Assembly (NCBI GenBank): GCA_973895155.1
Contig: OZ316896.1
Location: 4,779,925-4,843,924, forward strand
Source: Marsupella aquatica
Lineage: Eukaryota; Plantae; Marchantiophyta
Reading direction: 5' to 3'
DNA: 64,000 bases
Shown here: positions 17,536 through 37,263 of the stretch, piece by piece
Numbering within the stretch: the stretch's first letter is position 1
How the letters are laid out: each line of letters begins with the position of its first letter
The notes under the pieces: generated by a model
What the model was told of the DNA's origin: nothing
The model's database searches: none
The model's input: the letters and a program-made list of their open reading frames with translations, nothing else
Position numbers and translations under genes: made by a program

Positions 17536-17901
17536 TTAGTCCGTCTTGGGTTTGGGAAGCAAGACGGCGTGGATGCTAGGTACCACACCACCCTCAGCAA
17601 TGGTCACACCAGCAAGCAGTTCTGCCAACTCCTTATCGTTGCTGATAGCCAATTGAATGTGTCTTGGCGTGATCCTGGCCTTTTTGCTGTCGCGGCAAGC
17701 ATGTCCTGCCAGCTCGAGGACCTCTGCAGTGAGGTACTCCAAAACGGCAGCAAGATACACAGAGGCACCAGCACTGACTCGTTCGGAATATTTCCCCTTC
17801 TTCAAATTTCCGGCTATCCTTGCCACAGGGAACAGCAAACCTGCCTTGTGCGACTTGGAGATCGCTTTCTTCTTCGCCTTGCCATGACCTCTTCCTGCCA
17901 T
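17536..17901 (-). CDS. H2A: Divergent histone H2A variant, copy 1 (121 aa, intronless CDS, short C-tail ending LLPKPKTD)
   Basis: Histone-fold motifs [38 protein letters not shown] and [13 protein letters not shown] intact from ATG (17901) to TAA. Confidence 0.93.
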
Positions 17902-18097
17902 TGTGAAGAACACGACTAGAAAGGTACCTGGGGCCGTCCCGGGCGTCGTAAGGTTCTTACAAACAGAATGCTTCGAAGAAATGTGGGTCGAAGAATCGAC
18001 ACTCAGGATGAATGCGAGCAAGAGTGACGTACTTGTGGACCCTGAATAATTGCAGCGAAAGAATTGAAGCTAATGAAAGAAACCCTGCCATTTCAGC

Positions 18098-18163
18098 CCT
18101 TAAATACAGGTAACGGATGCCTTTGCGTCATTTGTCAGTCAAGAATAACGTTATCTGCAGCTC
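18098..18163 (-). promoter_or_regulatory. Shared histone-variant upstream module with TATA-like box (H2A copy 1); partial second copy at 18308-18340
   Basis: Plus strand ccttaaat...tttgcgtcatttgtcagtcaagaataacgttatctgcagctc matches the H4 upstream sequence (31771-31836) at 36/42 ungapped with equal spacing. Confidence 0.7.
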
Positions 18164-19739
18164 CTGTTCTAATAATACACGGACGACTGACAATTATCTT
18201 TCAACTGCCAGTTTTCTTCAATTTAGACATGATACTGATTTGAAACCTGCACTGCCTCTGAAAAAAATTGTCACACACATACAAGAAATGTGCTAACTAG
18301 TTTGAAGTTTGTCAGTCAAGAATAAGATTATCTGCAGCTCCTGTTCTAATATACACGGACGAATGACAGTTATCTGTCAACTGCAATTTTTTCCAACTAA
18401 GACACAGGTTATTTGAAATTTACGCTACCTGCATTGCCTCTGAAATAAGACAAATACAATATATGTGTTAACTACAGTAGTTTGAAGTCACAAGTCGCGC
18501 ATGTGTATAGATGTTAACTATTCACCCATTTATGAGAAAGTTTACTTCTGTGATCAATATCAATCGAAATGGATATTTTGTGCTCCATTCTGTTTGTCTG
18601 CCTCATCGGTGAGTAAGAAAATTCTGTGGCATTTGGACTTCATCCAATTTCGGGCTATAACACTGGTTGACGTGGCTATTTTATCCATTTCCGAGGGTCA
18701 AGCCTAGGCTTCAGCTGAAGTGACTGAGCGAACACATTTCATGAACAACGTCATCTAGCTCGCTCGTCATCTCACAGCTGTAGATTGATTTCAGCCAGTC
18801 ACCCTAGGGTGAATGCATCGTCGAAAAATTCGTCATATAAAAAATCGAAGTGATCCTAAGATGAGCTCGCCAGCTACTGAGTGCTTGTGTTTGGCACCTT
18901 ACAGACTATTGGAATCAAGGCTGCAAATGAGCTTGCAAAGTTGACTCGTACATAGTACTCGTCAATGTTTGGCAAGGGATTGGAGATCGACTTGCTCTGG
19001 GCTGCCTGCAGGCTGAGCTTCCAATGATTGGTCCCTTGCTTTTGTTTGAAACCGAGTGGACTTGGTCGGATAATCGGGTGCACGCATCGTCGAAAAGGTA
19101 AGACTGATTTGCAACAGAATGTGATTCATTTGTAAAACACACAGCTCCTCAAACAACAGGACGCCCTTGTCGCCCATTAAATTTTACTTCCGTAAAGTCT
19201 CCTTCCCAATCCATGGGCGAAGGACCAAAACTGAAATGAATCTCGATGTAGATCGCCCAGCAAACCGCGTCAAGGGTAGGGAAGGGGGGGAGGGGGTGAG
19301 GTGGCCTGGGCCAGCGTGATTTTCAAAGTTTTTTTCGTTCGAAGGGTGACGAATGAGTCACGAAGATGCTAGATTCTAGTTAATGGGGTATGCCCGGGGT
19401 ATGTGACTAAATTGTTTATGGAAAACAAAAACCATAGCCAAGTTTAGCCTAACAGTGTTCAATACTTTTAGAAGAAGTGGAATCTAGGACATTTTTGCCA
19501 CAAAAGAAACGAGTGTGGGCTTCCTCGTGTGCTGCCACCTAGTTTGAGCCCTTGCCTGCTGCTTGTCAGGGAAACCCAGAGCTAGGAGTAGTGATGAATC
19601 TTGAGGAATGTCATGGTTGTGACTCTTAAAATGAGGCTAATGGTGTCCAGGCTGTAGTTACTTGCATTCAGGATTGCTTCATTTTGATGGCACTTTTTGG
19701 CATTGACGTTTCGCTGCAGCTGGTTGTTACTCTACAAAA

Positions 19740-34172: not shown

Positions 34173-36631
34173 TATAGCATATAGCAGCCTCAAAATGTAT
34201 CTGTGGGTTTCCCAGAATATTAAGTCTTGATAGTCCGAGTGGTTTCCTGAGAATCCCTAATGGATTTTCTTGCACATCTATTTTATGAGTAATAATGTGT
34301 CTGTGGGTTTCTCAGATTATTAAGCCTGGATGGACCCAGGATTTTCAGAACCTAAAAAAACAAGCCTTGGATAACACTCTCTATAGTTTTGACTAAAATG
34401 TGACTTGTACACGAGTTCCTAATTATTGTTTGTAGTTGATTCCTGATCTTTAAGGGGGTGGTAGGTCACTCCTCATGCACAAACTACTCACTCAGGGAGT
34501 CATTCATAAAAGTGAAAAGTTATTCCCCAAAGTGGCAGGTTGCAGTTCATGCCCACTCAGGATATTGTTCACAAAAGTTGAAACACCCATTTTTAGTGGG
34601 TTTATTTAATTTGACCAGTTTTTCCCTCTTTAACAATGGAGCAAATGATGTTGGAAAAATCCCAAACTTTGTCAGGTTACAGATTGAACATCAGATGACA
34701 TGTAACAAAAATTTGGGCTTGAGTATAGATCCAAAAGCTGTCCATGCAAGTCAACTTGACACAAGTCTACCAAAATTTAGATGCACAAGTCTGCCAAAAG
34801 TCAACATTCTACAGTTGGTTTGGGGATCTAAAAAACTTTAATCAGGGTACCCTTCTCAGAAATGAAACGCCAGTCCAACAGCAGTCAATCAGTGTGATTT
34901 TAGGGTGTAAAGTAAGGAGGTGGAGTACACAGTCCATGGTAATGGGCAAAATAAACTCTGGGACCATCCGGGATTAACTTTGGGATTTACATGTTAAAAA
35001 GAATGATAGACAAAGCCAGTGAGGCATTCTGGATCAACAATGAACTCATGATACACTTCTCCTGGTTCTTTGTTAATAAGAAACATAGGAAAGCCAACGA
35101 GGCTTCTTGGATAAACAATTATGACTCTGTATGCTACTCAGGATAGACAAGAATTATGTACAGCACAAAACCCACTAGGAGCTCCGGACTTTATGAGAAC
35201 AAGCTCCAAAGGTTTACTGAACTTCCACTGTGGCATATTAATAAGCTTGCCAAAGATTTGGAAACCTAGAAGCCTGAGCAAAGGTGTTTCTCTAATGGGA
35301 AAATGAGCGGATATTGGTGATCGGAGTTCAGATGAGGATTTGGAAGGAGATTTGACTGGCTCTGCATCAATATGGCATGGTTGTAGGGGATGACGGATAC
35401 ATATGAGGATTTCTGGCAAAGGCGAACAAGAGTTGAGTTGGGCATATGGCGAGGGATTTTGGTCAAGATGGTGGGATCCATTGGTTGATAATGTGGCCGT
35501 GGTTGACTGCAGTCCATTATGGACGTTTGATCTGCCTTGAAGTAGTTGGTGCTGGTCATCTCTTCGATTCAGCTAGGTTTTGTGTTGTTTTAGTTTAAAT
35601 AAGAGTAGTGGCGCAAAGATGGTTCCTTGAATGTATGACAATAGTGGTTATCAAGAGCAATGTTGTAGCATTACCAAATTTTAGGATTTGCATTAGTTAG
35701 CTAAGCTATCCCTGGCCACCAAAAATTATTCTTAAATGATAAGGCTGTGAAAGAAAGTGTTATCAAGGCTTCCAATAAATTTGTATTTGCCTCACTAATA
35801 TTGTGCCAAGGATGTGGCTACAGTCTAAGGATGGATGACAAACTCCAGTGGGAATTGTTAGTGCAATTTTAAGTTGTAACCCAATACAGAGCACTTTGTC
35901 TACTTATAAACATTACCAAGTTAGAACATAACTCTACAGCTTGAGATTCAATTAGGTCCTCATACGATGTGACCAACACCAAATCAATTATAGGAAGTCA
36001 CCAACTTCCCATTCACAGCACTTTGAGGCACTTGATATGAAAACTACACACGTAGCAAGATGCCCTGAAAGGGCAAGATACACAAGTCAGAGAGAAATAA
36101 TTTCCAGATGCTCTTTACACCCTGACAGTGACAACGAGTTACAAAGAGAGTGACTGACTCTTTACATCAAAACCCATCTCAAAGGGACTTTTCCATTAAG
36201 ACCGCTCAATCATATACTTGCTCTTAAAACAGACTGAGTCTTTATTGACTGTACAGTAGTGGTTTAGACCTTTCCTGGAGCGGGCTGGTAGAATAAATGT
36301 ACCAGTCAGAATAGATCATTATTTTGCCGCTTACACTAGGAGTAGGGCTGAAAGACATGCTACTCCGCAAACCCATAATACCTCCAAAATTGGGTAAACT
36401 GTATATCCACATAAATAAAATGTGAAACCTAAGACGCTCTATATACACGTAAGCTCAAGATGGGCTAAATGATGCCTAATGGGATAGATCACAGATGACT
36501 ATTTACAATCCCCACAACGGATGCTACATCTTAGAACTGGGAACACCAGGTTTAATGTGTTTTCGGTGCTGGTTCGGTGCAGGTGTGATCCTGTCTGCCT
36601 GCATTTGCTTGCAGCAGTCTCTTCCTCGAAG

Positions 36632-36997
36632 TCAGTCCGTCTGGGGTTTGGGAAGCAAGACGGCGTGGATGCTGGGTACGACACCACCCTCAGCAATGGT
36701 CACACCAGCAAGCAGTTCTGCCAACTCCTTATCGTTGCTGATAGCCAATTGAATGTGTCTTGGCGTGATCCTGGCCTTTTTGCTGTCGCGGCAACCATGT
36801 CCTGCCAGCTCGAGGACCTCTGCAGTGAGGTACTCCAAAACGGCAGCAAGATACACAGAGGCACCAGCACTGACTCGTTCGGAATATTTGCCCTTCTTCA
36901 AATTTCCGGCTATCCTTGCCACAGGGAACAGCAAACCTGCCTTGTGCGACTTGGAGATCGCTTTCTTCTTCGCCTTGCCATGACCTCTTCCTGCCAT
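36632..36997 (-). CDS. H2A: Divergent histone H2A variant, copy 2 (121 aa, ends LLPKPQTD)
   Basis: Intact ORF. By eye it differs from copy 1 at 3 synonymous sites, 2 amino acids (GHAC>GHGC, PKT>PQT) and the stop codon (TAA>TGA). Confidence 0.93.
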
Positions 36998-37197
36998 TGT
37001 GAAGAACACGACTAGCTAATAGAAAGGTACCTGGGGCCGTCCCGGGCGTCGTAAGGTTCTTACAAACAGAATGCTTCGAAGAAATGTTCGAAGAATTGAC
37101 ACTCAGGATGAATGCGAGCAAGAGTGACGTACTTGTGGACCCACAAGAATTGTAGCGAAAGAATTGAAGCTAATGAAAGAAACCCTGCCATTTCAGC

Positions 37198-37263
37198 CCT
37201 TAAATACAAGTAACGGATGCCTTTGCGTCATTTGTCAGTCAAGAATAACGTTATCTGCAGCTC
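37198..37263 (-). promoter_or_regulatory. Shared histone-variant upstream module (H2A copy 2)
   Basis: Duplicate of 18098-18163. Confidence 0.7.

Follow-up and report, generated by a model that had tools for sequence, protein, structure and literature searches.

In a 64,000-nucleotide stretch of the genome of the liverwort Marsupella aquatica (contig OZ316896.1, positions 4,779,925 to 4,843,924; hereafter the window, numbered from its first letter), divergent histone genes of two families, H2A and H4, share by descent, as judged from their sequences, a promoter-like unit of ~210 bp that ends at a TATA-like box and of which a 46-bp module is the best-kept part. We hypothesize that the unit was probably copied from one gene to the other and that the module likely drives both genes in the same cell state outside S phase, with looser nucleosomes as the predicted outcome; taken as a whole, we give this reading a probability of about one half. 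Two H2A copies, the H4 and an H4-variant pseudogene, all four on the minus strand and within 20 kb, are arranged with their upstream elements as follows.

17536..17901, minus strand: divergent H2A copy 1 (121 aa, intact, coding part without intron)
18098..18105, minus strand: TATA-like box of H2A copy 1, so labeled from its sequence and position
18122..18167, minus strand: shared module of H2A copy 1 (39/46 against H4), containing the 15-mer at 18149
18168..18307, minus strand: upstream part of the H2A copy 1 promoter-like unit, homologous to 31841-32000
18308..18488, minus strand: earlier tandem duplicate of the H2A unit, ~177 bp long, 41/43 identical over the module and 103/123, with 5 gaps, over the remainder
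29052..29365, minus strand: H4-variant pseudogene (2-base insertion near codon 40, premature stop at codon 93)
29605..29850, minus strand: promoter-like unit of the H4 pseudogene, its module with 4 extra bases inside
31217..31528, minus strand: divergent H4 (103 aa, intact)
31771..32014, minus strand: H4 promoter-like unit, comprising the TATA-like box (31771-31778), the module (31795-31840) and the upstream part
32015..32194, minus strand: recent tandem duplicate (~181 bp, 95.7%) of the upstream part of the H4 unit; lacks the module
36632..36997, minus strand: divergent H2A copy 2 (intact; 2 amino-acid differences from copy 1)
37198..37581, minus strand: H2A copy 2 promoter-like unit together with its tandem duplicate

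The core of the similarity is a 15-mer that occurs without mismatch at 18149, 29660, 31822 and 37249 and with two mismatches at 18326 and 37419 (six occurrences where 0.09 would be expected; 0/100 shuffles), inside a module that is 36/42 identical between H2A and H4 without gaps and 39/46 identical over the longer span. It stands 51 bp from the TATA-like box in each of the three intact genes and 55 bp from it in the pseudogene. The gapless match with its perfect 15-mer and these distances had been given in an initial annotation of the window and came out the same when recomputed, and the second, partial module reported there upstream of H2A belongs to the older tandem copy at 18308-18488. The same annotation called the flanks of the two families unrelated; however, the next ~140 bp upstream, with the module excluded, align between H2A and H4 with a score of 144, reached by 0/1000 shuffles and 0/1000 window controls (maximum 139 in each), and the older H2A tandem unit aligns with the H4 upstream region with a score of 127 (again 0/1000 and 0/1000). 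When the H2A upstream part is set against that of the pseudogene, the score is reached by 5/1000 shuffles. Between the TATA box and the ATG (936/1000) and far upstream (532/1000) the two families compare at background level, and their 3′ flanks are borderline (51/1000 shuffles) and were left uncounted. Because collinear similarity continues ~140 bp past the module and stops at the TATA box, shared descent of the whole unit is indicated; the claim that a module is common to H2A and H4 thus stands as a match beyond chance, but one that forms part of a longer, apparently copied unit rather than a free-standing element. Had unrelated promoters instead acquired the same binding sites by convergence, the short and motif-like character of the strongest match would fit but the collinear ~140 bp would be left unexplained, and we consider this account very improbable.

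A profile made from the four H2A units alone, module excluded, ranks those four first and the two H4 units directly behind them (E 0.00018 and 0.029), and a profile of all units finds seven units in the window, all at histone loci. Tandem duplication of the unit occurred independently in the two families (18131-18488 and 31834-32194), with periods of 177 and 181 bp that approximate the nucleosome repeat length. Such recurrent duplication at a period of 177-181 bp is what one might expect of a transposon or satellite fragment of ~180-210 bp inserted upstream of both genes, yet no further copy lies in the 64-kb window, no terminal inverted repeats were found around the unit, and its orientation and distance to the TATA-like box are the same. 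Four DNA-type runs from two studies (X1-X4) contain the window stretch; a search for the H2A module in X1 and X2 returned one contig each, with a sensitivity that missed the known H4 modules and so excludes close copies only, and loose ends at the module edges in X1, X2 and X4 read as H2A promoter except for one rearranged, unexplained row of pseudogene type in X2 (among the 24 of 69 rows listed). We judge a mobile or satellite origin distinctly improbable, and the high-copy repeat that the initial annotation named as a danger is absent from the window beyond the seven units, the search at run level being insensitive.

A scan of metagenomes with a strict form of the module pattern gave 0 loci. 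A loose form matched 10 loci, 0/10 of which had a histone or any similarity past the 13-14 matched bases, so they were rejected as chance.

Self-comparison of the window assigns both H2A copies to a segmental duplication (15837-19581 against 34930-38678, 96.6%, extending to 20805/40542), and H4 and its pseudogene form a second duplication of 89.3%. A flavin oxidoreductase (OPR-like) gene and its truncated 5′ copy (19740-20805 and 39488-42975, plus strand) were carried along with H2A. At 18090-18180, runs X1 and X2 each yield only one H2A promoter contig, matching the copy-2 version. Perhaps this genotype alone carries the H2A duplication, although copy number cannot be read from the depth of a contig.

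Conservation appears higher in the module than elsewhere in the shared unit, as one of two tests supports. When uniform divergence is fitted to the upstream part, a gapless 36/42 arises in 2 of 4548 accepted simulations (flat priors, with the module boundary chosen after seeing the data). Within the H2A tandem unit, moreover, the module part is 41/43 identical against 103/123 for the rest (P 0.04), and in runs X1 and X2 the module part is 44/44.

Plant S-phase histone promoters contain octamer composite elements (types I-III), in which an octamer is joined to a hexamer or another partner (PMC3603003). Neither octamer nor hexamer was found within the module or in the surrounding ~210 bp, which for the octamer bears out the initial annotation at the module; in scans for exact forms, the octamer and its 7-base core are absent from all four upstream regions (4/4), and hexamer matches fall only outside the module. 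The module might nevertheless be an ordinary liverwort histone promoter element that also precedes canonical histones, in the role that octamer elements have in seed plants, and one element across histone families is indeed the rule in plants (PMC3603003). This account fares less well at a canonical H4 on a 2428-bp contig of X1, where ~2.2 kb of upstream sequence has no module piece or joint among those listed, and the same comparison did catch the H2A promoter by a 46-bp match; that evidence comes from one gene only and from an aligner that can miss such matches, and we find the account quite unlikely.

Candidate regulatory inputs can be narrowed somewhat. The DUO1 motif RRCSGTT, which drives the liverwort sperm programme and was searched up to 2 kb upstream in its source paper (PMC6290024), has 0 exact matches in the 630-770 bp above the ATG in the four regions. 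Patterns for E2F, GCN4, W-box, MSA, site II and CCAAT gave none common to both families. All four modules retain a pair of TGAC cores 11 bp apart, and H2A has a third; potato KNOX/BELL targets are characterised by such cores in tandem within 30 nt (PMC5301930), and KNOX/BELL proteins start the sporophyte programme in Marchantia (PMC9516144). The cores weakly favour a KNOX/BELL-type input, in zygote or sporophyte, over the DUO1 sperm pathway. In both families, donor-like splice sites downstream of the TATA box leave room for introns in the 5′ untranslated region.

The gene products diverge strongly from their canonical counterparts, as the initial annotation had claimed for both. H4 is the slowest-evolving core histone. 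The variant aligns over residues 1-103 without gaps to plant H4 in the PDB (E 4e-51), at full length and with an intact frame, and departs from the majority of the 120 matches listed by 18 substitutions, 13 of them past residue 30 and 11 past residue 55. Half of these (9/18, including R3A, R19S, L49P, E63V, R67G, T71I, H75Y and R77N) occur in none of the 120 matches, the nearest of which is not above 87% identical, and net charge falls from 18 to 16. An in-frame upstream ATG at 31546, which would add 6 residues, precedes a possible splice acceptor. Beside the variant, all four runs contain a second H4 of canonical type, with one and the same pattern (29 differences over 149 bases); the listed differences restore R19 and Q27, and a loose end reads canonical at residues 49-58. 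This is presumably the canonical H4 of the host. Together these data support a non-allelic paralogue, a real divergent variant beside canonical H4. Over codons 12-33, the 16 listed differences between variant and canonical H4 comprise 13 synonymous ones and no more than 3 replacements, where neutrality would predict 19 replacements (P 6e-6; among the differences listed, with the variant carrying half of the synonymous change and the nearest parent assumed), a signal that the N-terminal half of the variant may have been under long-term purifying selection.

At 30900-32010, runs X1-X4 contain a second version of the 3′ flank of the H4 variant and at least 3 module versions, which therefore points to further copies or alleles of the variant outside the window. 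An exact look-up of the window histone proteins in a protein collection found 0/3.

The H2A differs from the majority of 117 matches at 31 positions, and at eight near-invariant positions, including R32G, R88S, E91K and K95E (human numbering), its residue is in none of the 117. The nearest protein among 120 matches listed is not above 76% identical, the best named single-domain matches among them are Calypogeia fissa P0247/P0248 (74%), and net charge drops from about 13-14 to 10. H2A.X is defined by a C-terminal SQ motif, and the window copies end in PKPKTD and PKPQTD, without it. H2A.M is marked by RYA[Q/K] in the L1 loop, and H2A.W by a C-terminal KSPKK motif with an RY[A/S][Q/K] loop (PMC12459048); the window H2A has KYSE in place of the H2A.M loop, and both H2A.W marks are absent from its copies. 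Trees (a quick tree of 95 of 122 rows, long and chimeric rows dropped, and a second of 24 hand-picked rows) give a long branch without placement, and a joint clade with H2A.M is neither rejected (p-AU 0.45) nor supported. The protein thus appears to fit no named plant class. That long branch, among mostly algal matches, could suggest that the histone genes come from a co-sequenced organism, or else that they are the only, ordinary histones of the species; yet the H2A duplication extends into a flavin oxidoreductase gene of plant type, covering its 5′ end, and the variant occurs together with one same canonical H4 in all four runs, which leaves such an origin scarcely credible.

How the favoured arrangement may have arisen can be sketched. 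A local rearrangement would have copied the promoter of one gene in front of the other, with a break near the transcription start; copying is preferred because the coding sequences of H2A and H4 cannot carry one promoter from their ancient split and because a span of 20 kb holds all four genes in the same orientation. The conserved module would switch H2A and H4 on together, a function suggested by its higher conservation, and the missing octamer elements point to a replication-independent programme. From established nucleosome structure, we take H4 R19 to lie in a basic patch and H2A E91 in the acidic patch that normally binds it. A contact between the H4 tail and the acidic patch is also stated in PMC3156773. 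R19S and E91K would then loosen a single inter-nucleosome contact from its two sides, and the loss of arginines, H2A R32 and R88 (human numbering) among them, would weaken DNA and docking contacts; on account of these changes a looser variant nucleosome is predicted in one cell state. A more ambitious version, which we hold to be less likely than not, is that promoter capture gave a liverwort lineage a variant-nucleosome programme of its own. Its components would be an H4 variant, the second to arise independently in plants and altered in the histone fold itself, and an H2A of a new class; losses in the H4 basic patch would be matched by losses in the H2A acidic patch, and both genes would be switched on together in one stage such as zygote, sporophyte, spore or sperm.

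Several results weigh against a functional, jointly controlled pair. The H2A pair and the H4 pair are each duplicates, so the four module copies amount to one independent comparison of H2A with H4, and the pseudogene retains the 15-mer. In the reverse direction, a profile from H4 alone finds the H2A units weakly (E 0.12 and 0.28), below an unrelated match at E 0.019. When alignment columns are permuted, the module does not stand out (P 0.28 for the best 42 columns, P 0.047 for the longest run), partly because gapped alignment raises identity elsewhere in the unit. The excess of TGAC (P 0.002 in H4, P 0.06 in H2A) was assessed post hoc, and such cores are common in plant promoters and weakly diagnostic (PMC5301930). 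Recent constraint is not significant in either family: since its split from the pseudogene H4 has gained 5 replacements against 9 expected (P 0.11), and the H2A copies differ by 2 replacements against 5.6 expected (P 0.08). With five replacements postdating that split, and with Q27R of the variant not seen in runs X2 and X4, the H4 gene may be drifting. Finally, no H2B or H3 partner was found in the window: Pfam searches of 59 and then 106 frames (the second set being frames of at least 45 aa between loci, of which 14 more were already among the 59), self-comparison and tblastn (240 proteins as queries, one with 64 residues of H2B and none with H3) recovered only the four known histone loci, and a spliced or broken H3 could have escaped these searches.

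These points bear most directly on the alternative that the shared unit is a relic, in which a rearrangement copied it, the module stayed alike through later short conversion or luck, and the genes are relaxed, lineage-specific duplicates without meaningful joint control. Frequent local duplication with one pseudogene, the non-significant recent constraint and the permutation P of 0.28 all fit such a history; the strong long-term purifying signal in the N-terminal half of H4, a module above uniform divergence in simulation and the exact 51-bp spacing to the TATA-like box in three genes do not, and we regard it as unlikely, if the most serious of the alternatives. We retain promoter copying with joint use of the module as the favoured reading.

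Elsewhere in the window, two intronless fungal-type carboxylesterases (49106-50743 and 57790-59443, plus strand) are 81% alike, the second with a frameshift near its start. Nearly all of the 120 matches listed for the first are fungal, Calypogeia fissa being the only named plant among them, and in a 37-row quick tree both window proteins and the Calypogeia protein form one clade (support 100) inside fungal rows, so that a fungus-to-liverwort transfer common to the lineage is likely. This affinity, and the fact that the best named single-domain H2A matches also come from Calypogeia, point to a leafy liverwort as the likely host of these genes. A degenerate 17-19 bp minisatellite family occurs at 14513-14988, 33641-34165, 56524-56767 and 60708-61367. 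Pfam places exons of a CXXC zinc-binding protein (3193-4859), a UPF0220 protein (9401-9805) and an FHA-domain protein (44222-44605) on the plus strand, and Rfam gave 0 matches.

If the copied promoter does switch both genes on together, the locus would represent a rare plant H4 variant with a matched H2A partner. A second plant lineage with changes in the H4 fold, paired with a new H2A type, would widen the known tolerance of plant nucleosomes, and transfer of a promoter from one histone family to another would show plainly how distinct variants can acquire a common control; in Marchantia, the 46-bp module could be taken directly into reporter and binding assays. Rice H4.V is the only characterised plant H4 variant in the literature searched, which included few subscription papers and no supplements and in which no paper on a liverwort H4 variant or shared element was found; bryophyte histone catalogues could list such genes. 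The main text of a bryophyte pangenome paper (PMC12513842) has 0 occurrences of 'histone'.

The system resembles several known ones in part. The bryophyte H2A.M proteins Calypogeia fissa P0247/P0248 and the window H2A all have His5, Cys68 and an N-terminal lysine run, whereas the window H2A differs from that class (as defined in PMC12459048) in its KYSE L1 loop and missing C-terminal tail, and the tree, which does not group them, neither rejects nor supports a joint clade. Like the octamer composite elements (PMC3603003), the module is one proximal element common to different histone families, but it lacks an octamer or type I element and sits in a ~210 bp collinear stretch, as would a copied promoter.

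Looser chromatin is suggested by a further likeness. Mammalian short H2A variants (H2A.B/L/P) have a short C-terminus and a weakened acidic patch, as does the window H2A, which differs from them in its separate origin, far fewer changes and retention of most of the docking domain.

Male-specific clusters of Oikopleura dioica (PMC3156773) likewise link variant histones, including an H4 variant (H4t) that shares A69S with the window H4, and are co-regulated as a group; Oikopleura is, however, an animal, its clusters have bidirectional promoters, and its H4t has 3 changes and shown expression, whereas the window histones are co-oriented and have duplicated promoters. Also among the closest cases is rice H4.V, reported as restricted to Oryza (PMC7617672), which like the window H4 is a lineage-restricted plant paralogue of normal length beside a canonical H4. 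Rice H4.V is 72.8% identical to canonical H4, with 70% of its changes in the first 55 residues and the tail lysines lost (PMC7617672); the window H4, by contrast, has an identity of about 82%, retains the lysines K5/8/12/16/20, carries 11 of its 18 changes past residue 55, and is linked to an H2A variant with a related promoter.

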